Shown: positions 6,682 through 27,922 of the stretch, one piece after another
Layout of the letters: each line of letters starts with the position of its first letter
Position numbering within the stretch: position 1 is the stretch's first letter
Assembly: GCA_964250915.1 (NCBI GenBank)
Contig: CAXUIS010000002.1
Location: 18,736-78,851 of the forward strand
Source of the DNA: an uncultured Ktedonobacteraceae bacterium
Lineage (GTDB): Bacteria; Chloroflexota; Ktedonobacteria; Ktedonobacterales; Ktedonobacteraceae
Direction of reading: 5' to 3'
Length of the DNA stretch: 60,116 nucleotides
Notes under the pieces: model-generated
What the model saw: only the letters and a program-made list of their open reading frames with translations
Told to the model about the DNA's origin: nothing
The model's database searches: none
Program-made: the position numbers and the translations under genes

Positions 6682-6748
6682 CATACTACGGATATGATTG
6701 ACGATGGATATATCGTGTCCATCGTCAATCATATCCGTAGTATGTTAC
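6678..6748. terminator. Perfect 31-bp hairpin between convergent genes, overlapping both stop codons
   Basis: GTAACATACTACGGATATGATTGACGATGGA (6678-6708), 9-nt loop, exact complement at 6718-6748. TAA of the + gene is at 6679-6681; the stop of the - gene is at 6745-6747. No clear U-tract. Confidence 0.6.
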
Positions 6749-7773
6749 TTTGGAAATGCAAGACGACGATATTTTTCTCTGGACTCTAACCATGCTTCAT
6801 CGGAGAGACCCATTTTTTCACGCAATGTTTCTGGCGTCACTCCTGCTTTCAGTTGCTGCACAGCAAAGGTGTCGCGGAGCAACTGCAATGTGACGCGCTT
6901 CTTGATATTCGCTGCCTTCACAGCTTTTGCTAATATATAGTTCAAATTGCGGTCTGTACAGGCAAACACCTCATCGGTGAGATGATATTTCTGTTGGTAC
7001 GCGCGAAAAATCTGTGTGAACTCGGATGGCAGAGCAAGACGACGCTCCCGGTGCTGTTTATTTGTCGAGGCAGCAAAATGCACCGTTACCAGAGGGACAC
7101 GTTCGTCCGAGAGATCGACCTGATGCACTTTTAGCCCCATAACCTCTTCCTTTTTCAGACCGGCATGTAACACGAGATAGACAAGGCAGTGGCAACGCGG
7201 GTCTTCTTCAGAAACGGTCAGCAAACGTTGTATCTCGTCGGCAAACAATAATTCTGGCAATGGTGGTAGTGGACGCTCAAGCGTCAAACTCGCGGCTGGA
7301 TCCTCTTTTATCACCGATTCGCGATGTAGCCAGGAAAAGAAGTTTTTCAGGAACGTGACACGGCGCGCCATTGTCTTTGGGGCAGGTACCTGTCCCTTTG
7401 TCCCAAACTTGAGTTTCATGAGCCAATCAGTGAGTTGCTCTTTTGAGAGACGCCCAACTGGAGTGTCGTACCCTGTATAGTCACTGAACATCTTGAGGTC
7501 TGACAGGAAACATGTCACAGTATAGTTCGACTTTCCGCGCAACATCAATTCTTGCTGGTAGGGAATGGCACATGCAGCAAGACTCGATTGATCAGTGAGA
7601 GGATTTGTGCGTACCAACGGTGGAAATGGAGTTTCTAATGGGTCAGGAGGTTCTGCTATCACTGTTGGAGCACCGAAAAGATTGCTTTGTAGAACGGTGC
7701 TATCCTCGCTACGTGTTGGCTCTGCTGGCCTTGTTTGCTGAGCCTGATGCTCCTGTTGAATATCCTTCTGCAT
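6745..7773 (-). CDS. Tyrosine-recombinase (XerC/D, phage-integrase) fold protein with degenerate catalytic residues
   Basis: N-terminal SAM-like core-binding region and C-terminal box I/II aligned by eye to XerD. AGLKKEEV replaces GLRxxE, LQLLRDTFA replaces HxLRHxFA, MGLSD replaces LGHSD, and the terminal Tyr (EKY) is retained. AAGGAG SD before the ATG. 70-aa Pro/Gln-rich N-terminal extension. Confidence 0.7.
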   Translation of the reverse strand: MQKDIQQEHQAQQTRPAEPTRSEDSTVLQSNLFGAPTVIAEPPDPLETPFPPLVRTNPLTDQSSLAACAIPYQQELMLRGKSNYTVTCFLSDLKMFSDYTGYDTPVGRLSKEQLTDWLMKLKFGTKGQVPAPKTMARRVTFLKNFFSWLHRESVIKEDPAASLTLERPLPPLPELLFADEIQRLLTVSEEDPRCHCLVYLVLHAGLKKEEVMGLKVHQVDLSDERVPLVTVHFAASTNKQHRERRLALPSEFTQIFRAYQQKYHLTDEVFACTDRNLNYILAKAVKAANIKKRVTLQLLRDTFAVQQLKAGVTPETLREKMGLSDEAWLESREKYRRLAFPK

Positions 7774-7789: not shown

Positions 7790-8050
7790 TTGAGAATAGA
7801 ATGTGTGGTCTGATATCTCCCTCATTTTTCATTATAGCAGAACAGGTCTAGTAGGTGTGACATCCACTCAATACCGTAGAACGATATGAGCTTCCTCGCC
7901 TCACGACAAGGCTTTCCTGCTTCGTTGAGACGTGCCTAGTCGGGCTTTCGCTCTCCCAGGTCTTACAGCCTCTCCACAGGCTGAAACGGCAAGTCCTGCC
8001 GCCAGCACGTTTTTTGCTGCATTGATATCTCGATCATGGAAGACGCCACA
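7790..8050 (-). ncRNA. Expected TnpB omega/reRNA region (3' end of tnpB plus right end); boundaries not determined
   Basis: Placed purely from established knowledge that IS200/IS605 TnpB guide RNAs derive from the tnpB 3' end plus the transposon right end. I could not fold or recognise the scaffold by eye. Confidence 0.3.
7831..7839 (-). promoter_or_regulatory. Candidate extended -10 (TGCTATAAT) for the recombinase-like gene
   Basis: Reverse complement of ATTATAGCA at 7831-7839 reads TGCTATAAT, about 58 nt upstream of the ATG at 7773. No good -35 found. Confidence 0.3.
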
Positions 8051-9130
8051 TTCGGGACAGGTCCATGAACGGATATCAAGCAGTAAGGAGTCGAGAATAT
8101 GCCCACACTCATTGCAGCGTTTGGAAGAGGGATACCACTTGTCTATCTTGACAAGGGTACGTCCGTACCAGGTGGCTTTATACTCCAACTGACGGACAAA
8201 CTCACTCCATCCCACGTCTTGTATGGCCTTAGCAAGGTTGTGGTTCTTGACCATATTCTTGACTTGGAGACTCTCGACACAGACGACTTGGTTTTCGCGT
8301 ATGATGGTTGTCGAAAGTTTGTGCTGATAGTCCCGTCTTCTATCAGCAATCTTCTTGTGGCACCGTGCAACTTTCAAACGGGCTTTGTCTTTATTCTTTG
8401 ACCCTTTGTTCTTTTTCGCATGACGACGTTGCAGTTTTGCCAGCTTCTTTTCGTCGTGAGCAAAGAACTTCGGATTGCCGTAGGTGTGTCCATCACTGGT
8501 GATCACCATGCTCTTGAGTCCTACATCAAGCCCGACCATCTTGTTGACAACAGGCAAAGGCTTGATCTCTTCCTCAACAAGGATGGAGACAAAGTAACGG
8601 TCTGCTTCATCTTTGGTAATCGTGATGGATGAAGGCTTGCATCCTTCGGGCAAGGGGCGGCTCCAGACAATGTCTAAAGGAGTAGACAGACGAGCAGGGG
8701 TTAAAGACGTGCCTTTGAGGGTAAAGGCCGTTCCCACATACGTAGCATGTTGTTGATGGCTCTTTTTCTTGAATGTGGGATACTGTGCATGTCCTTCAAA
8801 AAAGTTGAGCATTGCCCTATCTAGGTGTCGTAGGGATTGTTGGAGGGGAACACTGGCAACATCAGCAAGCCATTCATACGCTTCTTGCTGTTTGAGCAAA
8901 GTCAAACGTTGGGCAAGTCCTTCGTAAGAGAGACGCTCACCACGTTTGTAGTACGCGTCTGTCCGTTCTCGCAATGCCCAATTGTAGACAAAGCGACAAC
9001 ACCCGAAAGTACGGGCGAGGATATGCTGTTGTTCCTCGGTTGGATAAAACCGATATTTGTAGGCTTTTTGCTGTTTCGTGTTCACGTCTACAGGATACCA
9101 CATATCATGTAGAATATCAAGCATTTTCAC
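7901..9130 (-). CDS. tnpB: RNA-guided endonuclease TnpB (IS605 OrfB family)
   Basis: KAYKYRFYPT N-terminus, RuvC-I GLDVGLK, RuvC-II VVCVESL, zinc ribbon CNECG...CPECG, RuvC-III HDRDINAAKN. About 408 aa, like characterised TnpB. GTG at 9130 or ATG at 9124. Confidence 0.9.
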   Translation of the reverse strand: MKMLDILHDMWYPVDVNTKQQKAYKYRFYPTEEQQHILARTFGCCRFVYNWALRERTDAYYKRGERLSYEGLAQRLTLLKQQEAYEWLADVASVPLQQSLRHLDRAMLNFFEGHAQYPTFKKKSHQQHATYVGTAFTLKGTSLTPARLSTPLDIVWSRPLPEGCKPSSITITKDEADRYFVSILVEEEIKPLPVVNKMVGLDVGLKSMVITSDGHTYGNPKFFAHDEKKLAKLQRRHAKKNKGSKNKDKARLKVARCHKKIADRRRDYQHKLSTTIIRENQVVCVESLQVKNMVKNHNLAKAIQDVGWSEFVRQLEYKATWYGRTLVKIDKWYPSSKRCNECGHILDSLLLDIRSWTCPECGVFHDRDINAAKNVLAAGLAVSACGEAVRPGRAKARLGTSQRSRKALS

Positions 9131-9229: not shown

Positions 9230-10015
9230 TTAAAAACCCACAAATGCGACAACACCGATGGCGATGAGCACAAGCGAGGTAATGGTGTTTGCGTTGTTTT
9301 CAAGCCACGCACCCTTAACTTGATAGCCAGCAAGCGTTGCAAGTACGGTTAGACCAATAAAGGTGGCAATCGTGAGTGCTGCAAAGACGGCTAGCACACC
9401 GACCACCGCCCCTCCTCCAATCGCACTCGCAGCCAGTGCGACAGGTAGAATGGTTAGATCAGGAGATGCAGCGACTCCAAATGGTACAGCAATAGCAGCA
9501 AGTTTTCCAGCAAGTGTTTGCTGATTAGCAGGTTTTGCTGTTGCATGGAGATGCTGGGAAGAATGGTCATGATCATGCTCTTCATGCTCATGAGAATGCT
9601 CTTCTCTCTGTTCATGATCGTGCATATGCTCTTCATTATGACTGCGAGCAGTTAGAGTGTCGTGGTTGTGCGTATGACCTTCCCCTGAGTGACTATGCCC
9701 ATGTCCACCACCAATAAACCCCCAAAGCAAGAAACCAAGTCCAGTCAGGACAAGAATCCCACCAATGATGTGACCTTGTTGTGTATCTAATTGACGTTGA
9801 AACTGCAATCCGATAATGGCGACAATACCTCCTAAAATAAGAGAGGCGACAACATGCCCCACGGAAGCCAATGCACTAACACGAGTGACTCGTGGCAAAC
9901 TCCAACGCTGTGTACGTGCAACAATGGCAAGTGGAACCCAATGGTCGGGAAGAATGGAATGTAAAATCGCAACGATAGCCGCCGCGCCCAAGAGGAGGAG
10001 TAAAGATGTGTGCAT
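9230..10015 (-). CDS. RcnA/NicO-like metal (Ni/Co) efflux permease with His-rich cytoplasmic loop
   Basis: N-terminal helix with the HSILPDHW motif, a central loop GHGHSHSGEGHTHNHD...HMHDHEQREEHSHEHEEHDHDH, and C-terminal TM bundle. The architecture parallels E. coli RcnA. It lies downstream of an ArsR gene. Confidence 0.55.
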   Translation of the reverse strand: MHTSLLLLLGAAAIVAILHSILPDHWVPLAIVARTQRWSLPRVTRVSALASVGHVVASLILGGIVAIIGLQFQRQLDTQQGHIIGGILVLTGLGFLLWGFIGGGHGHSHSGEGHTHNHDTLTARSHNEEHMHDHEQREEHSHEHEEHDHDHSSQHLHATAKPANQQTLAGKLAAIAVPFGVAASPDLTILPVALAASAIGGGAVVGVLAVFAALTIATFIGLTVLATLAGYQVKGAWLENNANTITSLVLIAIGVVAFVGF

Positions 10016-10143
10016 AGTGTTCGCCTTGCCTTTCTGTTCTTTTAAAATGTTTTTGTAGAAAACGTTAAATGCTTATCTGCTCACTTACTCATATAACAAG
10101 GGTGTATATATGCGGCTCTTCTTAAAATAAGCCGCATTTGGTT

Positions 10144-10557
10144 CTAAGCGTTGTGATGATCAGGCAGATTGTAGTATACGTGGTCGGCATGGTTTTCCGC
10201 TTCTCGGAAGAGGACAGCGAGGTGGCTGTCATCCAGCGAATAGTAGATAGTAGTGCCTTCACGCCGCTGTTTTACCAGCCGTCGATCTTTTAAGAAGCGC
10301 ATTTGGTGCGACACGGCCGACTCCGAGACGCCAACTAGAATAGCGAGGTCTCGAACACAGCATGAGCGTTTCACCAGCGCATAAAGTATTTTTACTCGTG
10401 TTGGATCACTGAGTGCCTGAAACGTACCAGAGACGACACCGATTAATGCATCTGACGGAGCCGAGGCTTGTAGTTCTGCGACTGTATCAGGATCAATTGG
10501 CGTCAAGCCAAGTATCTGTTCTTCCTGTTTCCTATGTATATCTGAGTGCATACTCAT
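10144..10557 (-). CDS. ArsR/SmtB family metal-responsive transcriptional repressor
   Basis: LSDPTRVKILYAL...CCVRDLAILVGVSESAVSHQMRFLKDRRLV winged-HTH with a CC metal-site motif. Confidence 0.85.
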   Translation of the reverse strand: MSMHSDIHRKQEEQILGLTPIDPDTVAELQASAPSDALIGVVSGTFQALSDPTRVKILYALVKRSCCVRDLAILVGVSESAVSHQMRFLKDRRLVKQRREGTTIYYSLDDSHLAVLFREAENHADHVYYNLPDHHNA

Positions 10558-10601: not shown

Positions 10602-11375
10602 CTAGAAGGTTAACTCGTCACCACTACGGAGTACACGTGGCTTTCCATCTCTACCAAATACCTTGACGGTCTGCCTACCCATGACACGCCAGTGTGCCAT
10701 TGTACTAGAGGTTTCGTTTGACTCGATACGTACCAAGGCCGTATCCTCGTCGATGCCTACCACTGTGTATAGCTCGGAGACAGAGTGCATCAGAGACGCG
10801 AAACGTTCTTGATCTAAGAAACCTGCCATACGATCAAAATGAGGGAAGACAATGACGTTGGGCACAATACCCATTGCCTCGACAAAGACCACTGGCTCTC
10901 CCATCATGACCTGCCGTATTGAGATTGTGCGTGCGCTCAGCATCATAGCACCAGCACTACATCCCGCGAGAACTGCTCCACGATTGTACGCGCTTTTGAT
11001 GATATCCCATGCAGGTGAGTCGCGCAGTGTCTCTATTGTATGCTGAGGATTGCCACCAGAAAAATAGTAGAAATCGGCTCCCTGTAGTAAGGCAAGTTGC
11101 TCTGCATCAAAGGCACTGTTACGATCAATAATGCGTGTCGCGCGTATATCTTTCACGCCTAGCTTCTTGAAGTGGTTCATACCAAGATTATTCCACGAGG
11201 TGGGGCCATTTGGCTCTAAACCACTCGCCGTTGGAAGCAGAGCTACTTTCGCTGCACTTGCTCCGCCGACGGTGTTCAAAAGATATGTGTCAGTCTCGTT
11301 CATAACGTCAAGGTATTCTCCTGAGCCTACCAAGGCAACTGCTCCTGGGCTAGGATGTTGGCTATCAGATACCAT
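10602..11375 (-). CDS. Peptidase S51 (cyanophycinase / dipeptidase E-like) family protein
   Basis: FSGGNPQH...GAVLAGCSAGAMML nucleophile-elbow Ser motif and a downstream His (FPHFD). GAAGGA SD. Confidence 0.75.
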   Translation of the reverse strand: MVSDSQHPSPGAVALVGSGEYLDVMNETDTYLLNTVGGASAAKVALLPTASGLEPNGPTSWNNLGMNHFKKLGVKDIRATRIIDRNSAFDAEQLALLQGADFYYFSGGNPQHTIETLRDSPAWDIIKSAYNRGAVLAGCSAGAMMLSARTISIRQVMMGEPVVFVEAMGIVPNVIVFPHFDRMAGFLDQERFASLMHSVSELYTVVGIDEDTALVRIESNETSSTMAHWRVMGRQTVKVFGRDGKPRVLRSGDELTF

Positions 11376-11423: not shown

Positions 11424-13028
11424 CTAGCAATCGAGGGCAATACTGATGCCTCCCTGTTCTGCGGAATGTTTTGCGGCTTCCATCACCATGATGTTGCGTC
11501 TCGACTCTTCAGGTGGAACAGCTAGTGCTTCACCTGAATGCAGGTGATTCGCCAGATTTCGATGGAAGGCGTAGAGCGGGGCAGGAGGCAGCACAAGATG
11601 CTGCTGCTGAATTATGCCACTACTATCACGAGTGGAAACTACAAGATCGGGTAATGCTTCCGATGGTGCAAGTTGCTCTTCAATAAGATCGCCAGACCAA
11701 CGGCGTGTCTGAATTGTCTCCTGGCGCCAGTTCCCTACGATGGCTCCTTTTTCTCCTAGAATATACCACTTTGGCTTCATGGCCGCGGCAATATCAGAGT
11801 GCATAAATTCGGCTTCCTGACCACTAGCGAAGCATAAGGAGATGTTCGCTTGATCGGCATTAGTTACATCGTGCCAAACACGCTTGTGTTTCACACCGCG
11901 CACATAGGCTAGACGGTCAGGGATAAGTTGCAATATCCAATCCAGGTAGTGTGACCCCCAGTCATAAAAGACGCCACCAGAGATTGGCTCATGAGAATGC
12001 CAGTAATCGCAGGGATGTGCATAACCGCCAATAAATGTTTCCATGTGGAAAATCGGACCAATACTTCCACTTTTGACAATTTGTTGAATCGCAAGGTAGT
12101 CGGGGTCCCAACGTCTACATTGGTAGACGGTAAGTGTCCGTTGAAAGTCATTAGCTAGCGCAATCATAGCGTCAGCTTCAGCAGTGGTCAAACAAAAGGG
12201 CTTTTCGCTGACAACGTGCTTACCTGCATGAAGCATCTGCATAGTTATTGCAGCGTGCGTATTAGGTGGAGTAGAAATAATCACTACGTCAATATTTGGG
12301 TCCTCTGCCACTTCCGTCAAGTTTGTGCAAGTACGGATGCCAGGAAAGGCGGTTCGTGCCGCAAGCAAACGATCCTCGTTACGGTCACATACCAGCGCGT
12401 ACTCTAGCCCCGGAGTATTACTAATAGCGGTTCCATGTTCTAAACCGATGGCACCATAGCCAATCATTGCCACGCGGGCGGCCTTTTCTGTTGTATTAGC
12501 ACCAGCAGCATAGCGAATAGCACGTGCCATCATTTGTTGAAACATGGGATGTGCTTGCGTCTCTGGTGTATTTCCCAGTGTTGTACAGAAGACTTTACCT
12601 TGACCATAGGAACGGGTATATGCGACAGCGTATGATGCATACTGCCATGTAGTACGCCATAGAACTTCAGCGTCAGGAGGAGTTCTTTCTAGCAGGTAGA
12701 GCGACGCAAGCATGGTGAAGGTGGAGTCAACGCGACGTGTAAGATAAGAGTCGAGGGTTGCCACACGCACAATGATCTCGCAGAGTGGAGTATACATTCC
12801 ACGGACCGAGCCTAGTACAGTACCTAGCATATCGCATTCGTGGTACATCTCCACTGCATTTCCACTGCATACTAATCCACCACCATTTTCGACAAATGTA
12901 CAGAGGGCTTTCTCTTGTCGAGGAGTGAGCGGTCCTGCACTTCCATCGAGCAGAACAACGTGCTGTGGAATGAGATGAGCAAACATCTCCGGGTCTGTAA
13001 CTATCGAGACATCTTCTCTCGCAAGCAT
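11424..13028 (-). CDS. ThuA-like domain fused to Gfo/Idh/MocA NAD(P)-dependent sugar oxidoreductase
   Basis: N-terminal ThuA-like part (LLDGSAG...FVENGGGLVCSGNA) and a C-terminal Rossmann fold (VAMIGYGAIGLEHG...EKPF). Start set to the ATG at 13028, preceded by AAGGAG. The longer ORF to 13202 would overlap cysS. Confidence 0.75.
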   Translation of the reverse strand: MLAREDVSIVTDPEMFAHLIPQHVVLLDGSAGPLTPRQEKALCTFVENGGGLVCSGNAVEMYHECDMLGTVLGSVRGMYTPLCEIIVRVATLDSYLTRRVDSTFTMLASLYLLERTPPDAEVLWRTTWQYASYAVAYTRSYGQGKVFCTTLGNTPETQAHPMFQQMMARAIRYAAGANTTEKAARVAMIGYGAIGLEHGTAISNTPGLEYALVCDRNEDRLLAARTAFPGIRTCTNLTEVAEDPNIDVVIISTPPNTHAAITMQMLHAGKHVVSEKPFCLTTAEADAMIALANDFQRTLTVYQCRRWDPDYLAIQQIVKSGSIGPIFHMETFIGGYAHPCDYWHSHEPISGGVFYDWGSHYLDWILQLIPDRLAYVRGVKHKRVWHDVTNADQANISLCFASGQEAEFMHSDIAAAMKPKWYILGEKGAIVGNWRQETIQTRRWSGDLIEEQLAPSEALPDLVVSTRDSSGIIQQQHLVLPPAPLYAFHRNLANHLHSGEALAVPPEESRRNIMVMEAAKHSAEQGGISIALDC

Positions 13029-13059: not shown

Positions 13060-15459
13060 TTATAGCTCATGAGTATGAGGATGTTCGTGAGAGTGATCGG
13101 GTAAATGCTGATGTGTATGACTATGCATTGTACCCGTGGTTGGAAGTTCTTCTGGTGTGTGCGTGTGCGTCCCTTCAAGATGGAAGGGATGGCTATGACC
13201 ATGCCAGAACTGTTCTGGATTATAATTAGCTACAAGCAAACTCTCGCCATGATGCCAGCGATCACGGAAGATGTCATAGTTCTTTTTGCTTTTCGTGCGG
13301 CGTTCCTCCTCGCTAAGACTATACCATTCACGGTGCGGATGCTTCTCGATGAGCATTTCCACCTCTGGAGTTGTCACTGCACGATAGCCCGCCGCCTTAA
13401 AAAAGAAGCTATAGAAAATGTCCATCAAACGGTAGAAACGGAATTTTTCGTCGATCCAACCTACTTCATGCAAGAGTTCTCGCCGGAAGGCTATAAGATA
13501 GCCCTCAATCGCATCGGCATCCTGTTCCGAAGATTCATGGAATTCACGCAAGTCCTCTGTAACCAAACCATAAGGACCTGCAATACCCACACGTGCATTA
13601 GTGAGTGCTGTAGCTAAGGGTGTCCAAATATCCCCTTTGACCTCGATAGAGGTATCCATAAGTATCACATAATGCCCTCTACTCACACGCATAGTTGCAT
13701 TACGACCCGCAGCAAAGCCCATATTATGATCTGCAAAAAGAACGTGTAGACCAATGGTTTGCCCCTCCTCACTGGTCAAATCCCCCTGACGAGCAAGTTG
13801 CTGAAGATATGGAAGTGTTTCATCAGTTGAACCATTGTCAATCACAACTATTTCTATGGTATGGCTTCCAGCATGACGACGAATACTTTCTATACAACGT
13901 GCTACATCGTCCTTACTATTATGTGCCAACAGATTCACCGAAAACTCGAAGAGGTCGGACAGATACGTGTTGTCTTGAGCATCGGAAGAGTGAGCAAGGA
14001 CAGGAAACTCTTCGTCCAGACGACGCGGTAAGACGAGCGAACCACGCTGAGTATCTCTCACAACATATCCCGTGTGGTTCAGTTGTTGGCGTATAGTATC
14101 GGCCTGCTGGTAGTCGTGCTGAAGACGCAATGCCTGGCGTGTCCGCACTTGAGTAGCAACAGGCGAGGGCACAGCAGCAAGATAGGTAGTTGGTTCGCTC
14201 AAACGTCGAGGTAAGTCACTCTGAAGATACGCTTTGAGACCAAAGCCAAGAATGCGGTCCATGTCAAAAAGGACGCGTAACTTTGTGACGGGTGTTTCTT
14301 GTGAACGCAACATAGCCCAGACAACAGCCATAGCCCGTGGCATATTCAAATCGTTCTCCACCTCGGCAAGAAATGCATCGCGCCACTGGCGTCCCTCGTC
14401 CTGTAGTGGCTTATCAGAAAAGACAGCGTTCTCGTCTGCTTGTGTGAGCAGATGATAGGCTAGATTTCTCAGCCGTTCCAGTGATGTTTGTGCAGCTTGT
14501 AGAGCGCGGAAGGTAAAATTGAGACGACTACGATAGAGTGCAGTTGTATAGAAGTAGCGCAGAGCCATTGGTTCAAAGCCACGCGAAGCGACTTCCGCAC
14601 GAGTATAAGCATTACCAGTAGACTTTGCCATTTTCTGACCATCAGCGAGAAGGTGCTGGGCGTGCAACCAATAGTTGACAAACTGTTCACCCGAAAAGCC
14701 TTCGCTTTGCGCGATTTCGTCTTCATGATGTGGGAAAATGTTGTCAACACCACCTGTATGCAGATCGAAATGCGTACCTAGATACTTTGTGGACATCGCA
14801 CTACATTCAATATGCCAACCGGGGAAGCCACGACCCCAGGGACTCTCCCACGCCATCTCGCGTCCAGATTCGGCTACCTTCCATAATGGAAAATCTTCCA
14901 CGTTATGTCGGTCAGCATCAACACCCTCGTGAACACCTGCCATCATATGTTCAAGTAGGTTGCCAGACAACTTACCATACTCAGGGAAGCGTTTGATATC
15001 AAAGTACACATTGCCATTGACTTCATAGGCAATACCCTTTGCCTCTAATATTGAAATAATCTCGATCATTTCAGGTACGTGTTGCGTAGCGCGTGGAAAG
15101 ATATGTGCAGGTAGGATATTTAATAACGCTTCGTCTTCATGAAACGCTTCTGTATAAAATTGGGCGATTTGAAGCGATGACTTGCCTTCTTTACGTGCCT
15201 GTGCCTCAACCTTATCTTCGCCCTCATCTACCACTTCCCGCCGCATATGCCCTACATCAGTGATATTTTTCACATGTAGGACCTCAATCCCCCGATACTC
15301 AAAGGCTCTTCGTATCCAGTCCGCCATCGTAAAGGTACGCAGATTGCCAATATGTATATAGCGATAGACGGTAGGGCCACAGGAATACATTTTGATTCGT
15401 CCATGCTCCATAGGAACAATCTCTTCTATCTCGCGTGTCAGGGTATTATAAATCCTCAT
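13060..15459 (-). CDS. cysS: Cysteine--tRNA ligase fused to a GT2 glycosyltransferase domain and a His-rich tail
   Basis: One open frame. The CysRS part has CGPTVY, HIGN, WHIECS, FPHHEDE and KMAKS, with a complete C-terminal domain ending about ...VVRDTQRGSLV. The GT-A/GT2 part has VIDNGSTDET and NMGFAAGRN. Tail: HSHTHQHLPDHSHEHPHTHEL. ATG at 15459 with GGAGG SD. Confidence 0.85.
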   Translation of the reverse strand: MRIYNTLTREIEEIVPMEHGRIKMYSCGPTVYRYIHIGNLRTFTMADWIRRAFEYRGIEVLHVKNITDVGHMRREVVDEGEDKVEAQARKEGKSSLQIAQFYTEAFHEDEALLNILPAHIFPRATQHVPEMIEIISILEAKGIAYEVNGNVYFDIKRFPEYGKLSGNLLEHMMAGVHEGVDADRHNVEDFPLWKVAESGREMAWESPWGRGFPGWHIECSAMSTKYLGTHFDLHTGGVDNIFPHHEDEIAQSEGFSGEQFVNYWLHAQHLLADGQKMAKSTGNAYTRAEVASRGFEPMALRYFYTTALYRSRLNFTFRALQAAQTSLERLRNLAYHLLTQADENAVFSDKPLQDEGRQWRDAFLAEVENDLNMPRAMAVVWAMLRSQETPVTKLRVLFDMDRILGFGLKAYLQSDLPRRLSEPTTYLAAVPSPVATQVRTRQALRLQHDYQQADTIRQQLNHTGYVVRDTQRGSLVLPRRLDEEFPVLAHSSDAQDNTYLSDLFEFSVNLLAHNSKDDVARCIESIRRHAGSHTIEIVVIDNGSTDETLPYLQQLARQGDLTSEEGQTIGLHVLFADHNMGFAAGRNATMRVSRGHYVILMDTSIEVKGDIWTPLATALTNARVGIAGPYGLVTEDLREFHESSEQDADAIEGYLIAFRRELLHEVGWIDEKFRFYRLMDIFYSFFFKAAGYRAVTTPEVEMLIEKHPHREWYSLSEEERRTKSKKNYDIFRDRWHHGESLLVANYNPEQFWHGHSHPFHLEGTHTHTPEELPTTGTMHSHTHQHLPDHSHEHPHTHEL

Positions 15460-15627
15460 AGGCCATACCTCCACCGGAAATATTTGCAAACTAGTATTAC
15501 TCTTCTTTAAGAGTCATGAGCAAACGGAAATGAGTAATATGAAAATGCGCAGGACAGGTTATGCAGATTAATAAATATTTCGTTTATCTGCATTATTGCG
15601 TCCTCATAATGGGTAATTTGCTAACGA

Positions 15628-15693: not shown

Positions 15694-16170
15694 CTATTGC
15701 TCGTCCACTTCTTGAAGCAGATGCTCCGCCTCTTGCTGTATCTGTTGCCAGCATGCATCACAATAACCTGTTGCCAATAAGCCAAGAGAAAGGGTGTGAT
15801 AGTGGTATTGCTCCTGCAAACGTTCGTGCAGGTCGCCCAAGAGGGCATCATCAAGGTGTATCATCGTTTTGCACTTCTTACAGACAAGGTGATGATGACT
15901 CTTCCCTTGTGACATTTCATAGTGAGGAGGTTCACCAGGCAAGTGATTTTCGTGTATCAGGCCCAGCTCAGTGAGCAATTCTAGTGTACGATAGATTGTT
16001 GAGAGACTCACCCGTGGATTGTATATTTGCACCCGCTCCGCGATTTGCTCAAGAGTAACGTGACCTTTTGCCTCCTGAATCACACTCAAGACAAGGTAAC
16101 GCTGTGGTGTTAAGCGATAACCGCGTTTGTGTAGTAAATCGTTACTCGAATCAACATAGTGATGCATCAT
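15694..16170 (-). CDS. Fur family metalloregulator (Fur/Zur/Nur type undetermined)
   Basis: LTPQRYLVLSVI...STIYRTLELL winged helix, HHHLVCKKC and YCDAC metal sites. Start set to the ATG at 16170; the extended ORF overlaps the upstream permease. Confidence 0.8.
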   Translation of the reverse strand: MMHHYVDSSNDLLHKRGYRLTPQRYLVLSVIQEAKGHVTLEQIAERVQIYNPRVSLSTIYRTLELLTELGLIHENHLPGEPPHYEMSQGKSHHHLVCKKCKTMIHLDDALLGDLHERLQEQYHYHTLSLGLLATGYCDACWQQIQQEAEHLLQEVDEQ

Positions 16171-16243: not shown

Positions 16244-17419
16244 CTAAAAACTACCTTTGCTTCTTGATACTTCCTCTGACGCAAGTGGAGTTGGAGTACT
16301 TGCAATTCCGCTTACTGCTTTTGAGGGTATGAAAAGTGGTTGTGTTGTTTTCACTTCAAGGTCGTCGTATCGCTTCACCTTATAAATCACAGTCGATATA
16401 ACCCAACTAAGAATAAAGAGGCCAATAATGATGCCTCCTAGAATTCCAAAATCCAGGTTGACCAACGAGTCCCATAAACCACCTGTGAGATGAAACACGG
16501 TTGCGATGATGCTAAGAACTTCAATTCCACCCACGACCACCGCAACAAGCACGGAAACAAGCGTAATATTCAAATTGTAGTAGAGTTTGCGTACAGGTTT
16601 GACGAAAGCCCACCCATAGGCACCAAGCATAAGGATACCATCGGTAGTGTCAAGCAGGCACATACCAGCCGTAAAGAGCATGGGAAAGATCAAGATATAG
16701 AGGATGGGCATACCTTTGCCAACAGCAGTAGCAGCAATGCCTAACAATCCTACCTCAGTTGCCGTGTCAAAACCCAGTCCAAACAGCACGCCCACTGGAT
16801 ACATCTTCCAACTCGCATCTACCATGCGCAACAATGGACGAAAAAATCGACCCATGATCCCACGCTGGTTCAAAAACTCATCGAGCGTTTGTTCGCTATA
16901 CTCTTCACCACGCCTTACTTTCTGGAATGCCTGGAAAATCTCCCACAACACAAGACCATTGATGAGGGCGATCACAAACAGAAAAGTTGCGGATACCGAT
17001 AAACCAATCAACCCACCTGCGTTTTTCAAAGCAGGAATACTGCCCTGAATAAAGGTTGCGGCAAGAGCGATAGCTACAGATAAAGCTACCACAACCGTGG
17101 AATGACCAAGCGAGAAGAAAAATCCGACGCCAATAGGTCGTTTGTTTTCCTGCATCAACTTGCGTGTCACGTTATCAATCGCGGAAATATGATCTGCATC
17201 AACAGAATGACGGAGCCCAAAAGTATAGGCTAAAAGTGCTGTTCCCAGGAGTTCGGGATATCGCACACCAAAACCTGCAAATGCAAAGACCCATGCAAGA
17301 ATGTTAAAAGCGATGAGAAACACATAGATACCTATGATTTTGTTACGTAACTCGCTTGGGCTATCATTGAAGACGCGAGTAATGGCTGAAATACCAAAGC
17401 TATTAGCTCTACTACTCAT
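16244..17419 (-). CDS. HoxN/HupN/NixA (NiCoT) family nickel/cobalt permease
   Basis: Signature HSVDADHISAIDN in TM2 and GLGFDTATEV. AGGAGG SD before the ATG. Confidence 0.85.
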   Translation of the reverse strand: MSSRANSFGISAITRVFNDSPSELRNKIIGIYVFLIAFNILAWVFAFAGFGVRYPELLGTALLAYTFGLRHSVDADHISAIDNVTRKLMQENKRPIGVGFFFSLGHSTVVVALSVAIALAATFIQGSIPALKNAGGLIGLSVSATFLFVIALINGLVLWEIFQAFQKVRRGEEYSEQTLDEFLNQRGIMGRFFRPLLRMVDASWKMYPVGVLFGLGFDTATEVGLLGIAATAVGKGMPILYILIFPMLFTAGMCLLDTTDGILMLGAYGWAFVKPVRKLYYNLNITLVSVLVAVVVGGIEVLSIIATVFHLTGGLWDSLVNLDFGILGGIIIGLFILSWVISTVIYKVKRYDDLEVKTTQPLFIPSKAVSGIASTPTPLASEEVSRSKGSF

Positions 17420-17611: not shown

Positions 17612-17683
17612 TTCTATTTAGTGCCAAACTTCTCGGTGGTATACTGCTAGCAAATCATATATCTATTCTTGAAAGGTACGTCT

Positions 17684-18826
17684 ATGTCGGAACCCATTCG
17701 TATTCTCGCCGTTGATATTGGTACAGGAACACAGGATATCTTACTTTTCGAGAGCGGAAAAACGATAGAGAACTGTTTCAAGATGGTTATGCCCTCACCA
17801 ACGGTTATTGTTGCTAACCGCGTAAAGCAAGCGACGAAGCAGGGACAACCTATTGTCCTTACGGGTGTAACAATGGGTGGTGGTCCTTCACACTGGGCAA
17901 CGCGCGATCATGCGCTTGCCGGTTATGCTGTTGCTGTTACGCCTGAAGCGGGACGCACGTTCGATGACGATCTCACAATGGTTGAGCGAATGGGCTTCGA
18001 GATTATTGATGACGATGAGGCAATACAGCGTATCACGCATCCTGATGTTGTCCATATTGAACTACAGGACTTTGACGCGCAAGCGATCACAACCGCATTC
18101 AACGCCTTTGATATCAGTCCGCGTGTTGATGCACTCGCACTTGCAGCATTTGATCATGGGGCCGCCCCACCTGATATCAGTGATCGGCGTTTTCGTTTTG
18201 ATTTTCTTGCAAAAACGGTGCACGCAAATCCTACTCCAAGTGCCTTTGCCTATTCCATAGAGGATATTCCGGTTGAGCTAACACGACTACAAGCTCTAGC
18301 AAAGAGTGTGAAACACTATCTGGAGCTTACGCACTCGGATACTCATACACCATTGTTTCTAATGGATACGGGGTCAGCAGCCGTCCTTGGTTCACTAGAA
18401 GACCCGCTTGTACGCAAGCAGCAGGAGAGCCTCTTATGCAATATTGGAAATTTTCACACCCTTGCATTTCACCTTGTGCAAGGACGTATTGCAGGTATTT
18501 TTGAACATCATACAGGAGAAATCAGCAAGACAAGGTTGGAAGAACTACTTGTCAAACTGGCACAAGGAACGCTCTCAAATGAAGAGGTATTTGCAGATAG
18601 TGGTCACGGAGCACTTATTGTGCAAAAATCTTCATCACACACTCATACGTTGCCTTTTCTGTCAGTAACTGGGCCTCGACGAGAACTCTTACGCGGTTCA
18701 CAACTTCATCCCTATGAAGCGGTTCCGCACGGCGATATGATGTTGGCAGGGTGTTACGGTCTCTTGCGCGCTCTTGCCAACCATGAGCCGCGCTTGGCAC
18801 CTGCAATTGAACCATCGCTCTTATAG
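17684..18826 (+). CDS. DUF1786-like ASKHA-fold protein
   Basis: N-terminal ILAVDIGTGTQDILLF phosphate-1 type motif of the actin/hexokinase/Hsp70 fold; overall resemblance to DUF1786. Assignment from memory only. Confidence 0.5.
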   Translation: MSEPIRILAVDIGTGTQDILLFESGKTIENCFKMVMPSPTVIVANRVKQATKQGQPIVLTGVTMGGGPSHWATRDHALAGYAVAVTPEAGRTFDDDLTMVERMGFEIIDDDEAIQRITHPDVVHIELQDFDAQAITTAFNAFDISPRVDALALAAFDHGAAPPDISDRRFRFDFLAKTVHANPTPSAFAYSIEDIPVELTRLQALAKSVKHYLELTHSDTHTPLFLMDTGSAAVLGSLEDPLVRKQQESLLCNIGNFHTLAFHLVQGRIAGIFEHHTGEISKTRLEELLVKLAQGTLSNEEVFADSGHGALIVQKSSSHTHTLPFLSVTGPRRELLRGSQLHPYEAVPHGDMMLAGCYGLLRALANHEPRLAPAIEPSLL

Positions 18827-18868: not shown

Positions 18869-19582
18869 ATGGCTGGATATATCGTACTTGAGGGCGGGGC
18901 CGAGTTTGGTGGAAAAATGGTGGAACCAGACCAACAAGCTCTAAAACTGGCAGGTGGCCCATCGGCTCGTATCAGTATTATCCCAACGGCTGCCGCACCG
19001 GATAACAACCATCAACGTGCAGGAAGAAATGGTGTGAATTGGTTCGCACGTCTCGGTGCTGCTCATGTTGAAGCACTGCCCCTTGTAGATAAAGCGTCAG
19101 CAAATAATGCGAGTATTGTAACTGCTATTCGTCAGTCTCAACTCATCTATCTCTTGGGTGGCTTCACAGGATATCTTGGTCAAACCCTCGCGGGCAGTGA
19201 TAGCTGGAAGGCTATGCTTGCTGCATACGAGAGTGGGGCAGTGATAGCTGGTAGTAGTGCTGGCGCAATGGTCTTATGCGAGTATTATTTTGATCCAAGT
19301 ACAGGAAAAGTTGTTAATGGATTGGCATTAGTGCCAAATACCTGCGTTCTACCTCATCATAATACCTTTGGGAAAGGGTGGGTATCACGTTTAACACAAC
19401 TGCTTCCCCAAGTAGTTCTCGTTGGTATTGACGAACACACAGGGATGATAGACGATGGAGAAGGAGATAAAAAGAGTACGTGGCATGTTTATGGACAAGG
19501 AGCGGTAACGCTCTATCGCCAGGGGAAGGCAGTAGTGTATAGAACAGGCGAGACATTCACGGATACCTTTGTGACATCGTGA
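18869..19582 (+). CDS. Peptidase S51 (cyanophycinase-like) family protein, second paralogue
   Basis: LLGGFTGY...GAVIAGSSAGAMVL and LPHHN motifs, parallel to the gene at 10602-11375. Confidence 0.7.
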   Translation: MAGYIVLEGGAEFGGKMVEPDQQALKLAGGPSARISIIPTAAAPDNNHQRAGRNGVNWFARLGAAHVEALPLVDKASANNASIVTAIRQSQLIYLLGGFTGYLGQTLAGSDSWKAMLAAYESGAVIAGSSAGAMVLCEYYFDPSTGKVVNGLALVPNTCVLPHHNTFGKGWVSRLTQLLPQVVLVGIDEHTGMIDDGEGDKKSTWHVYGQGAVTLYRQGKAVVYRTGETFTDTFVTS

Positions 19583-22337: not shown

Positions 22338-23834
22338 TTATACCGCAACCATGCAACCCTGTAATGACCAGGGCGTAACGCGCTCAATGCGAACGCTTAC
22401 AAGCTCCCCTGGCTGAATATTTCGAGTCATAGTTGTTTCTATGTGTTCAGGTTGTGGAAAGAAAACGAGTTTATTCGTGCGATTGCGACCACGCCAGCGT
22501 TGCAGTCCATGCGCAGAGTGTTCCTCTTCAACAAGCACCTCCTCAACTCTATTGAGATAGGACTGGTTAATCTCAAGTGCTATCTTTGTTTGCAGGTCCT
22601 CTACAGCATGCAAACGCCGTTTTTTCTCTGCCAATGGCACATCGTCTTCCCAACGGGCAGCTACTGTGCCAGGACGTACAGAATAGGCAGCAACATGCAC
22701 AATATCGAAACGTACCTTTTCTATCAAATCCAACGTATGCTGAAATTCCTCTTCGGTTTCGCCACAAAAACCGACAATAACATCCGTCGAGAGCGAGATG
22801 CTAGGCCATAACTCACGTACACGATCTACACGCTCACAGTATTCAGCCAAGGAGTAGCCACGCTTCATACGCTTTAACATAGCGTCGTCGCCAGCTTGTA
22901 CCGGAATATTAAGATGCTCACATACCTTTGGCAAATGCGCCATACGCTCAATTATGCTATCGGTCATATAGCGTGGGTACGAGGTCATAAAGCGAATACG
23001 CTCCAGACCCTCAATCTCGCTCAGATCGGTCATCAGGTCGGCAAGATTTGGCTTGTTGGGCAAGTCTAGGCCATACGACTCGACAGTTTGTCCAAGCAAC
23101 GTCACTTCTTTTGCACCCTTTCTGACAAGGGAACGAGTCTCAGTGATGAGTTCATCAATCGGACGGCTACGCTCACGACCTCGACGATAGGGCACAATAC
23201 AGTATGTACAGACCTTGTTACAGCCTAGTACAATAGGAAGCCACGCTGTCACGCTAGCTTGAACAGGCTCTATTTTCGTTGGATAGTGCGCGATACGTTC
23301 TCCTGGTTTCGGTGTGATTGCCATTGGCAACACACTCCGTCTACCCCCTCTCTCGAAAGAGGTAGCGTAAGTTGGCATTGCTGGATCCGTCGAGATAGGA
23401 AGATCATTGTCAGGGACGTATTCGATATCCAAACAACCTGCGCCAGAGATGGGAGTCCAACGTTCCTCAAGGAAACGAGGTAGAATGTCGGCTTGCTCGA
23501 CCTTCATGAAGAGGTCAACATGCGGATAGCGTTTGCTAAGTTCATCAATAGTTTTCTGATTGCCAATCATGCATCCCATCAATGTTACAAGAAGGTCACT
23601 TCGCTCTTCTTTTGCACGTCGAAGCTTTGCAAGCAGATTGTGCGCTTTTTCTTCCGGTGCCTGTCGCACACTACATGTATTGAGAACCACGAGATTCGCC
23701 TGCTCCATGCTTGCCTCTTCCCAGCCAAGGTCATCGAGCATAGTCTGTACACGTTGTGAATCAGCTTGATTCATCTGACAGCCTACCGTCCAAATATGAT
23801 ATTTTCCACGTGCAATCGCTGTTGTGGTGGTCAT
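22338..23834 (-). CDS. miaB: tRNA-2-methylthio-N6-dimethylallyladenosine synthase MiaB
   Basis: MTTase N-domain (HIWTVGCQMNQ), radical-SAM CNKVCTYC, C-terminal TRAM. ATG at 23834 preferred over the upstream extension. Confidence 0.9.
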   Translation of the reverse strand: MTTTTAIARGKYHIWTVGCQMNQADSQRVQTMLDDLGWEEASMEQANLVVLNTCSVRQAPEEKAHNLLAKLRRAKEERSDLLVTLMGCMIGNQKTIDELSKRYPHVDLFMKVEQADILPRFLEERWTPISGAGCLDIEYVPDNDLPISTDPAMPTYATSFERGGRRSVLPMAITPKPGERIAHYPTKIEPVQASVTAWLPIVLGCNKVCTYCIVPYRRGRERSRPIDELITETRSLVRKGAKEVTLLGQTVESYGLDLPNKPNLADLMTDLSEIEGLERIRFMTSYPRYMTDSIIERMAHLPKVCEHLNIPVQAGDDAMLKRMKRGYSLAEYCERVDRVRELWPSISLSTDVIVGFCGETEEEFQHTLDLIEKVRFDIVHVAAYSVRPGTVAARWEDDVPLAEKKRRLHAVEDLQTKIALEINQSYLNRVEEVLVEEEHSAHGLQRWRGRNRTNKLVFFPQPEHIETTMTRNIQPGELVSVRIERVTPWSLQGCMVAV

Positions 23835-24110
23835 GCGCAAGCCTCTCTTAGCATCTGTATGTTCTTGCAATGGGATAGAAAAATCGCTACCATCTCTAAG
23901 TCCGCTATTATACACTAAGCGAGGCATGTTGTCACGATATTTTTTGAGATGCTATAGGACATTCATCTAAATTTAATGCCAGAGATACTACACCTTAATT
24001 TATACGTCTAAGTAAGTAGTATTTTATGATAAGCTCTCCCTTATTATTTTGAGGGCTTCGCAAATATCACGCCTCCACAAAAAAATATGTATGAGAAGGA
24101 TTGTTATTTG

Positions 24111-27570: not shown

Positions 27571-27666
27571 GGAGGTGTAGGGACTCCGGTGGGTCTCACC
27601 GTCTTCAAAACGGCTGGGGGGTCGCTCAGCGCGGTCCTCGGTGGGTTCGACTCCCATACACTTCTG
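27571..27666 (+). tRNA. selC: tRNA-Sec (anticodon TCA), 8/5 bacterial type
   Basis: 8-bp acceptor GGAGGTGT/ACACTTCT (2 G-U); 6-bp D stem GGACTC/GGGTCT with 4-nt loop CGGT as in E. coli selC; anticodon loop CTTCAAA; about 9-bp variable arm (27617-27639); T arm GTGGG-TTCGACT-CCCAT; discriminator G. The anticodon stem has only 4 clean pairs. Confidence 0.8.
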
Positions 27667-27922
27667 CCTCCATTCTCATACAATTGCTGTGCCATCTACT
27701 ATAAGCGTGGAATTAATGTGAATTCTCTTACTAGCGTAGAATAAACTCCGCGAAATCTGGACTGAACCCGTGAGATGGCTTCCCTCTCAAAGTCAAACAG
27801 CGCATTCCTTGAAGGATGGTAGCCCCCTGTCAAGTCACATTTTTTATAACACCCCAAACGTCCTAGAAAAACGAGTGTAAGAATATCCCCGTTGAGTACG
27901 TTTTCCATGAAGCATGAGTTGC

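Follow-up and report, generated by a model that had tools for sequence, protein, structure and literature searches.

What does a cysteinyl-tRNA synthetase (CysRS) do with a glycosyltransferase joined to its C-terminus? The question is raised by a gene in a stretch of DNA of 60,116 nucleotides from an uncultured Ktedonobacteraceae bacterium (the whole stretch analysed, here called the window). A single minus-strand frame at 13060-15459, comprising 799 codons and a stop codon at 13060-13062, encodes a CysRS including its anticodon-binding mini-domain (ABD), a GT-A domain of the glycosyltransferase 2 (GT2) type, and a histidine-rich tail. The initial annotation, made from the sequence alone, had proposed that this frame might mark a cysteinyl-glycoside (thiol) pathway related by analogy to mycothiol synthesis, with its CysRS paralogue MshC, or else a metal-linked form of CysRS. 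We arrive at an explanation in three layers: that the protein is the cell's CysRS, that the GT2 domain is half of a unit directed to tRNA-Cys, and that Cys-tRNA-Cys would serve as carrier of a glycosylated cysteine derivative. We give this explanation, taken as a whole, slightly less than an even chance of being right. The gene is divided as follows.

13060..15459, minus strand: whole fusion gene, CysRS + ABD + GT-A/GT2 + His-rich tail (open reading frame [ORF] and sequence; Pfam; more than 120 homologue clusters)
15468..15472, minus strand: Shine-Dalgarno-like GGAGG, 8 nt 5' of the ATG at 15459 (sequence; start shared with homologues)
14485..15459, minus strand: CysRS catalytic domain (Rossmann + CP), residues 1-325 (PF01406, E 5e-95; CysRS structures; TIGR00435)
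14176..14484, minus strand: CysRS helical region (stem-contact + helical-bundle), residues 326-428 (aligned with 8qhp and 3sp1)
14026..14175, minus strand: ABD (Pfam CysS_C), residues 429-478 (Pfam; profile match to 1li5 413-460)
13951..14025, minus strand: conserved acidic linker PRRLDEEF..SSDA.D, residues 479-503 (homologue alignment; AlphaFold2 [AF2])
13225..13950, minus strand: GT-A/GT2-like domain, residues 504-745 (PF00535; AF2; Foldseek; conservation table)
13063..13224, minus strand: His/Thr-rich tail, residues 746-799 (His count; alignment)

The three-part reading of an approximately 800-codon frame is borne out by the ORF, by Pfam and by homologue clusters of the same architecture. 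Pfam places tRNA-synt_1e at residues 14-324 (PF01406; E 5e-95, 318.7 bits against a cut-off of 27), CysS_C at 434-471 (a weak match), and Glycos_transf_2 at 510-640 (PF00535; E 2.6e-16, 60.4 bits against a cut-off of 23.3). The motifs initially named, HIGN, KMAKS, CGPTVY, WHIECS, FPHHEDE, VIDNGSTDET and NMGFAAGRN, are all present, and none varies among 18 homologues whose overall identity is 73-90%. The stop-to-stop ORF spans 13060..15489 and is listed with a TTG start; the likely start of the gene is the ATG at 15459, because GGAGG precedes it and because homologues begin at the same Met (MRIYNTL or MKIYNTL). The helical region (326-428) is more variable in the homologue alignment and carries insertions; the linker (479-503) has a net charge of -7 and an AF2 pLDDT of about 70-75.

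Comparison with solved structures and family models indicates that the synthetase module is complete and canonical. Residues 1-474 align full length with solved CysRS structures (E 1e-97 to 1e-82), among them 8qhp, 3sp1 and 1li5 (E 1e-97 to 1e-85), and the module passes the NCBIfam cysS model (TIGR00435; 434.1 bits against a cut-off of 340). The class-I motifs, HIGN at 36-39 and KMAKS at 276-280, align with those of solved CysRS. The Zn-ligand positions, C27 (CGPTVY), C219 (WHIECS), and H244 and E248 (FPHHEDE), lie in motifs that 8qhp and 3sp1 share without change; these putative ligands are counterparts of what we take to be the Zn ligands of E. coli CysRS, C28, C209, H234 and E238. An insertion, GH..D.GEDK, is common to the window protein and Borrelia CysRS. 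The window protein thus resembles canonical CysS (E. coli 1LI5 and 1U0B; Borrelia 3SP1; 8QHP) in residues 1-474, in motifs, in Zn positions and in anticodon contacts, and differs in adding approximately 325 C-terminal residues: that is, the acidic linker, the GT-A/GT2 domain and the His-rich tail. NCBIfam has no model specific for this CysRS-GT2 form.

The analogy with MshC, by contrast, does not hold for the synthetase module, which is a full CysRS with an intact ABD. The module fails the NCBIfam MshC model (TIGR03447; 204.6 bits against a cut-off of 485.1), and MshC structures align to residues 2-333 only (E 5e-46). MshC chains, at 413-414 aa, have a truncated architecture of approximately 410 aa that lacks an ABD; the window protein continues into the helical region and the ABD. 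MshC (PDB 3C8Z, 8HFM) is alike in its CysRS-derived, Cys-activating fold and in the tie between Cys activation and sugar chemistry; it differs in having, at approximately 414 aa, no counterpart of the ABD, and in that the GT2 domain of the window protein joins the tRNA-binding part, not the activating part. Mycothiol synthesis, for its part, employs a separate glycosyltransferase, MshA, whose fold is different.

The residues that read the anticodon are also in place. In E. coli CysRS the GCA anticodon is read by R423, R427, W432, D436 and R439 (PMC12684709; PMC13449415). In the window protein, R441, R445, Y450, D454, R457 and D469 occupy the positions of E. coli R423, R427, W432, D436, R439 and D451, and homologues of the fusion show no variation at these contact positions. 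Single-sequence PDB searches with the ABD were too weak, and profile and alignment analysis was used instead; the register is supported by a profile match to 1li5 residues 413-460. For the mapping we used what we presume to be the E. coli CysRS C-terminal reference segment, whose numbering agrees with PMC12684709 and PMC13449415.

The full-length alignment, the TIGR00435 score, and the intact motifs and anticodon readers lead us to take the protein as a working CysRS. We conclude that it is very likely the cell's own cysteinyl-tRNA synthetase, vertically inherited in Chloroflexota and predicted to charge tRNA-Cys in the normal manner. It is probably the housekeeping enzyme, and we consider it likely, though with less assurance, that the genome has no other cysS. 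No second cysS was found in the 60-kb window, where tblastn with the CysRS and GT2 parts matched only the gene itself; translation-type neighbours, YqeY and an EF-G-like gene, stand beside the fusion at many loci. In two metagenome-assembled genomes (MAGs), CysRS-GT2 occurs on each of two contigs (loci L017 and L022 in SMAG_U1932; L045 and L059 in CTOTU3122), as expected either of two copies per genome or of strains mixed in the bin.

Is the fusion genuine, and how old is it? A protein search returned more than 120 homologue clusters, 73-90% identical, all approximately 800 aa and all with the same Pfam architecture; the named homologues belong to Ktedonobacteria and are labelled 'cysteine--tRNA ligase'. 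A profile of the C-terminal module, run against one genome per species (GTDB), matched at least 562 stretches, of which the best 80 were analysed. All 80 are from Chloroflexota. Among them are Ktedonobacteria, including the isolates Thermogemmatispora carboxidivorans, T. aurantia, T. tikiterensis and Dictyobacter kobayashii; Chloroflexia (Roseiflexaceae, Kouleothrix, Herpetosiphonaceae, Chlorohelix); and Dehalococcoidia, including two closed chromosomes. GT2 and a full CysRS share a single ORF, longer than 690 aa, in all but two of the 80; those two are cut or frameshifted. An artefact of assembly or frameshift joining two separate genes, for which the 78 single ORFs in species-representative genomes and the protein clusters leave next to no room, has a probability close to nil; we regard it as effectively excluded, and the fusion as real. 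Ktedonobacteria and Chloroflexia share 59% identity in the module, against 39-41% to Dehalococcoidia, CysRS core identity is 58-63% between Ktedonobacteria and Dehalococcoidia, and the module tree tracks taxonomy, as vertical descent predicts. On one nanopore contig (L086, 6539-8987) the CysRS-GT2 gene is broken in two, a CysRS fragment of 168 aa and a second piece of 328 aa, frameshift errors being the probable cause, and a glutaredoxin gene lies directly upstream.

That the architecture is undescribed also stands, as far as the literature searched extends: CysRS-GT2 is not mentioned there, papers on tRNA-Cys and on Chloroflexi included. To our knowledge, bacterial aminoacyl-tRNA synthetases rarely gain whole enzyme domains. 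Other bacterial synthetase fusions are on record, for example Mycoplasma penetrans MetRS (PMC13215547). That protein is alike in being a housekeeping synthetase enlarged by ancillary domains; the added domains differ, and the addition in the window protein is an enzyme fold that has free-standing paralogues keeping the ABD.

These paralogues bear directly on the partner of the GT2 domain. An exhaustive search with residues 479-799 returned two groups of near relatives: CysRS-GT2 fusions of 709-818 aa, and proteins of approximately 300-330 aa in which CysS_C is followed by GT2. The remaining matches, beyond both groups, are distant multi-GT2 giants. Hundreds of free ABD-GT2 proteins emerged from a second search; they come from Chloroflexi, Dehalococcoidia and Ktedonobacteraceae, of which Ktedonobacteraceae is the family named for the closest homologues of the window protein. 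Hits of approximately 360-520 aa (P0135, P0139, P0280, P0282, P0125) were considered as a separate architecture and rejected; they begin inside the CysRS helical region and were taken to be truncated or frameshifted fusions. In 113 free forms, the position of E. coli R423 is kept in 106, that of R427 in 106, an aromatic residue at W432 in 107, D436 in 106, Lys or Arg at R439 in 107, and D451 in 109. The free forms make up their own clades, 34-39% identical to the fused forms; to judge from these sequences, they are old paralogues, not broken fusions.

Metagenomes were scanned with the free form; 84 loci could be used, and most of the free forms recovered make up one group, 59-100% identical, in a tight operon. 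Its order is a ManC-like nucleotidyl-sugar synthase (31 loci), gamma-glutamyltranspeptidase (GGT) directly upstream of ABD-GT2 (40 loci), ABD-GT2 itself, and an M3 oligoendopeptidase F (PepF) directly downstream (51 loci); G6PD is nearby in 14 loci and a class-I pyridine-nucleotide disulfide reductase in 13. The same scan contains a third architecture: nine metagenomic proteins of 580-675 aa in which a domain like peptidase S51 is joined, through a Pro-rich linker of approximately 30-45 residues, to ABD and GT2. A DUF1684 gene often follows.

L084/L085 8001-8954; L087 8001-8948; L092-L171: free ABD-GT2 paralogue of approximately 315 aa, in the conserved operon
L092 6068-7900; L094 311-2143; L103 2273-4114; L104 955-2898; L114 7107-8906; L115 921-2945; L117 5508-7247; L121 7173-8912; L136 3701-5527: S51-ABD-GT2 fusion

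In one Chloroflexi MAG (L003, 744-1814 and 2855-4488) a FemAB-family gene directly precedes free ABD-GT2, an arrangement that may be chance, and VKOR and Pyr_redox_2 genes come next on the opposite strand; FemAB enzymes are aminoacyl-tRNA-dependent transferases.

The anticodon-reading residues are retained in the fused, the free and the S51-fused forms. The free GT2 keeps the ABD and not the Cys-activating core, which argues that the partner of GT2 is tRNA-Cys and not the CysRS active site, and the copying of the ABD along with GT2 implies that the cell uses tRNA-Cys recognition for something beyond charging. On balance we think it probable, less firmly than the identity of the synthetase, that GT2 is half of an ABD+GT2 evolutionary unit, a putative enzyme delivered or tethered to tRNA-Cys. 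No tRNA-Cys gene was found near the fusion or the paralogues in 53 loci.

Would the tRNA itself then be the acceptor? According to one alternative, the target of GT2 glycosylation is a nucleoside of tRNA-Cys, within the anticodon loop or close to it, that the ABD presents. The geometry fits, since GT2 stands directly behind the ABD via a short conserved linker; free forms retain the anticodon-reading residues; and a tRNA deaminase-like gene adjoins the free form at one locus. There is also a precedent: the GT-A-fold enzyme QTGAL/B3GNTL1 glycosylates queuosine-34 in animal tRNA. Together with GluQRS/YadB, QTGAL illustrates how a synthetase part or a GT-A fold can be put to new use on one particular tRNA close to its anticodon, although GluQRS keeps the catalytic core without an ABD, the opposite arrangement, and QTGAL has no synthetase domain. 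Against a nucleoside acceptor, the GT domain has an acidic character; no RNA enzymes stand among the conserved partners, which are peptidases, GGT and a sugar oxidoreductase; the S51 fusion is hard to account for; and we know of no sugar-accepting base in tRNA-Cys, nor of queuosine in it. We consider a nucleoside acceptor improbable.

The next question is whether the GT2 domain has an active site. Modelled with AF2, residues 429-799 reach a pLDDT of 82 on average and above 90 in the core, with a pTM of 0.70, the tail being poor. Foldseek matches it to the GT-A folds of ppGalNAc-T2, Leptospira GT2 6p61, the WrtF fucosyltransferase and K4CP (E 1e-11 to 1e-10, probability 1.00). The best NCBIfam matches of the free forms are weak and sub-threshold (MftF and other GT2 enzymes). 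The features of the domain are D541-N-G-S-x-D546, N587, D602-T-S604, E606, D610, D680 and H707-x-H709. The segment 'LDTS' aligns on the DxD motif of K4CP (DSD/DCD) and of 6p61 (DAD) and reads D602-T-S604: that is, the second Asp is lost. In a conservation table of 150 sequences (76 fusions, 65 free forms, 9 S51 fusions), the loss of the second Asp extends throughout the family, and the first is present in 76/76 fusions, 54/65 free forms and 0/9 S51 fusions. E606 and D610, invariant and located just downstream, could substitute for the lost Asp. D680, invariant in 149 of the 150, aligns with acidic residues of K4CP (GED) and 6p61 (EDKD), in a low-confidence alignment. R521, S544, D546, G581, N587, E606, D610, G628, R660, E671, D680, N727 and W735 vary little or not at all in any of the three groups; conservation of this acidic and polar set at only 34-40% identity speaks for an active or binding site that has been maintained. 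With its DxD degenerate, the domain is no more than putatively catalytic.

The same degeneracy raises the alternative that the domain is a non-catalytic appendage: a degenerate GT-A serving as a nucleotide-sugar or metal sensor, as a metal store for the Zn-dependent CysRS, or as a structural or oligomerisation domain. Loss of the second Asp everywhere and of the first in part of the family accords with such a role, as does the tail, in which 15 His fall within the last 49 residues. Thirteen of the tail His positions are invariant in the 18 homologues, so that the tail is a conserved motif and not low-complexity drift; it probably binds divalent metal. Genes for metal handling, moreover, flank the operon in the window and in its closest relatives.

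15694-16170, minus strand: Fur-family regulator, upstream of the fusion gene across a 235-nt spacer
16244-17419, minus strand: NicO Ni/Co permease, upstream of the Fur-family gene
9230-10557: ArsR regulator + RcnA-like His-rich membrane protein, downstream of the S51 gene described below

Against an appendage stand the dozen or so polar or acidic positions that remain invariant across 150 sequences and three architectures, and the nucleotide-sugar synthase within the paralogue operon. The tail, found in Ktedonobacteria and Chloroflexia and of low AF2 confidence, is absent from Dehalococcoidia, which have GT2 nonetheless, and the metal genes adjoin only in L004-L009. A purely non-catalytic role is thus, in our estimate, unlikely. 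The initially proposed 'metal-linked' form of CysRS has just two observations behind it, the conserved His tail and the flanking Ni/Co genes, the latter restricted to the closest relatives.

A further reading of the metal genes is that the protein is a Zn-sparing or stress-induced CysRS paralogue under Fur/Zur-type control, with a normal cysS elsewhere. It draws on the same-strand Fur-family regulator 235 nt upstream and on the His-rich tail; but all Zn-ligand positions are kept, the regulator adjoins only in the closest relatives, and the fusion is vertical across three classes. As general explanations, we rejected both this paralogue and a Ni/Co link on the restriction of the metal genes to L004-L009. 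The chance that the protein is a Zn-sparing paralogue is very small, and we treat it as effectively excluded. In the 235-nt leader, an Rfam search at a permissive E-value found no T-box or riboswitch, and the whole window likewise gave none at the gathering threshold; the folding of the leader is unexceptional (z = -1.6), and inverted repeats and promoter and terminator scans yielded nothing interpretable.

Having assigned the GT2 domain to a unit probably directed to tRNA-Cys, we turn to the genes downstream, which were reported at the outset to follow after gaps of 31 and 48 nt. Both gaps match.

11424..13028, minus strand: ThuA-like + Gfo/Idh/MocA oxidoreductase fusion (ThuA-GFO), 534 aa, 31 nt after the fusion stop (Pfam; AAGGAG Shine-Dalgarno)
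10602..11375, minus strand: peptidase S51 (cyanophycinase/PepE-like Ser hydrolase), 257 aa, starting 48 nt after ThuA-GFO (Pfam)

NCBIfam matches of ThuA-GFO are to sugar and inositol dehydrogenases, all sub-threshold; the S51 protein matches PF03575 with 79.6 bits against a cut-off of 23.9. The statement that the fusion gene heads this operon needs a qualification: NicO and the Fur-family gene lie upstream on the same strand, across the 235-nt spacer, so that the fusion gene may or may not be the first of its transcript. In 77 non-redundant fusion loci, ThuA-GFO is present in 33, nearly always on the same strand and at a median distance of +87 nt, including loci of Chloroflexia (L035, L047, L051, L054); at L041 and L044 a GFO gene is directly upstream of the fusion instead. 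S51 lies within a few kb in 18 of the 77 (Ktedonobacterales and Chloroflexia), mostly directly downstream, and at some loci (L061-L065) the S51 gene overlaps the fusion stop codon. The linkage of both genes is thus conserved across classes.

For S51 the linkage is also backed by gene fusion. The fused S51-like domain and the S51 genes adjacent to CysRS-GT2, including 10602-11375, match in hhalign at 99.8% (E 3e-28, 244 columns). The columns S140, H179 and D209-E210 do not vary among 10 S51 proteins linked to the fusion, and the fused domain has S126, H169 and D207-E208 aligned with them, likewise invariant; the assignment as a Ser-His-Glu triad follows what we presume of PepE. The S51-ABD-GT2 gene fusion, a 'Rosetta stone' link, marks the S51 gene of the window as a functional partner.

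The finding of two architectures with an enzyme domain N-terminal to the ABD, CysRS, which acts on A76, and S51, joined via the Pro-rich linker, suggests a cycle on tRNA-Cys. According to the explanation that we prefer, tRNA-Cys would be a carrier: the CysRS core would make Cys-tRNA-Cys; the ABD would hold the anticodon while GT2 transfers the sugar of a nucleotide sugar to the cysteinyl moiety or to a derivative of that moiety; the S51 Ser-His-Glu hydrolase would cleave the ester and free the product from the tRNA; and the ThuA-Gfo/Idh/MocA oxidoreductase would act on the sugar. Further processing of the product might fall to ThuA-GFO in the window operon and to GGT and PepF in the paralogue operon. 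The nucleotide sugar may be GDP-mannose, a suggestion made because of the ManC-like gene in the paralogue operon. The anticodon and aminoacyl ends of tRNA are roughly 70 Angstrom apart, a span for which the Pro-rich linker, if extended, would be long enough.

Alteration of an amino acid while bound to tRNA has precedent (review PMC2330236). We see a resemblance to the tRNA-dependent conversion of Sep-tRNA-Cys to Cys-tRNA-Cys, the amidation of Glu-tRNA-Gln, and the reactions of Ser-tRNA-Sec, in each of which the amino acid is altered on a recognised tRNA; these systems have no glycosyltransferase or S51, and their product stays on the tRNA for translation, in contrast to the release proposed here. 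Placement of sugar on a cysteine thiol by GT2/GT-A enzymes is known from SunS and ThuS, which make glycocins. They differ from the window protein in acting on ribosomal peptides and in lacking a tRNA-binding domain, and no specific sequence relationship to SunS or ThuS was found.

Several observations weigh against this scheme. The DxD is degenerate, with no Asp in about 15% of free forms and in 9/9 S51 fusions. The GT domain (pI 5.5) gives no hint of direct RNA binding, and its place after the ABD, at the anticodon end, on a partly ordered linker of approximately 25 residues allows poor reach to the aminoacyl end. No sequence feature of the fusion points to the acceptor. The loci of Thermogemmatispora, Dictyobacter and Dehalococcoidia have no S51 or ThuA-GFO within 10 kb, and the neighbour counts are swollen by many close Ktedonobacteraceae. 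We therefore propose only tentatively that Cys-tRNA-Cys carries a glycosylated cysteine derivative to be released by S51, and regard as somewhat more doubtful the further step: that ABD-GT2, CysRS and S51 would amount to a new tRNA-guided assembly line on tRNA-Cys, making that derivative.

Could the same neighbours serve a thiol pathway that bypasses tRNA? Under this alternative, synthesis of a mycothiol-like thiol would be tRNA-independent: GT2 would make a glycoside that becomes an amino sugar, the CysRS site would ligate Cys-AMP to it in the manner of MshC, and S51 would be an amidase. The linkage of a sugar-oxidising ThuA-GFO and of S51 to the fusion agrees with such a route, as do GGT, the disulfide reductase and G6PD near the free paralogue, and glutaredoxin, DsbA and VKOR, each in single loci; the literature searched describes no thiol for Ktedonobacteria. 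But the CysRS core is canonical and scores below the MshC cut-off, no deacetylase or aminotransferase recurs in the neighbourhoods analysed, and the retention of the ABD by a free GT2 that lacks the activating core is left unexplained. The idea of a cysteine-sugar or thiol pathway thus keeps circumstantial support from these redox and peptide-processing genes, but an MshC-type route to it does not, and we judge a tRNA-independent synthesis decidedly improbable.

Other features of the window lie around and beyond the operon. The downstream end of the cluster is occupied by mobile elements.

7901-9130, minus strand: TnpB-like ORF, IS200/IS605-type
6745-7773, minus strand: phage-type integrase

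Divergently upstream of NicO are a DUF1786 gene (17669-18826, plus strand) and a second, cyanophycinase-like S51 paralogue (18869-19582, plus strand), and a similar upstream S51 gene is seen at L002 and L004-L010. A MiaB/RimO-type radical-SAM methylthiotransferase (UPF0004 + Radical_SAM + TRAM) is encoded at 22338-23927 on the minus strand, approximately 7 kb from cysS; MiaB enzymes make ms2i6A37, found in tRNA-Cys among other tRNAs. A tRNA-Sec gene with anticodon TCA lies at 27571-27668 on the plus strand (Rfam, 64 bits), so that the organism probably uses Sec; another (1718-1815) lies at L071, approximately 4 kb upstream of the fusion gene there. Between 28000 and 42000 the G+C content is 0.50-0.55, against 0.45-0.48 elsewhere, and this block holds a thiolase, an acyl-CoA synthetase, an S15 peptidase, a GH3 glycosidase with PA14, a LacI regulator and a sugar ABC transporter. 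A protein of 1196 aa is encoded at 48056-51646 on the minus strand; its C-terminal half is a long WD40 array (13 stretches matched).

The results indicate that a fusion labelled in databases merely 'cysteine--tRNA ligase' has become fixed in three classes of a major phylum of soil, marine and subsurface habitats. Cultured strains, T. carboxidivorans, T. aurantia, T. tikiterensis and D. kobayashii, carry it, which makes the question directly testable. If the GT2 domain is active, it would be the first glycosyltransferase targeted by a domain of an aminoacyl-tRNA synthetase, and would offer an entry point into the cysteine and thiol biochemistry of Chloroflexota. If the proposed cycle on tRNA-Cys is correct, its product could be the low-molecular-weight thiol, or the protected-cysteine pool, of this phylum.

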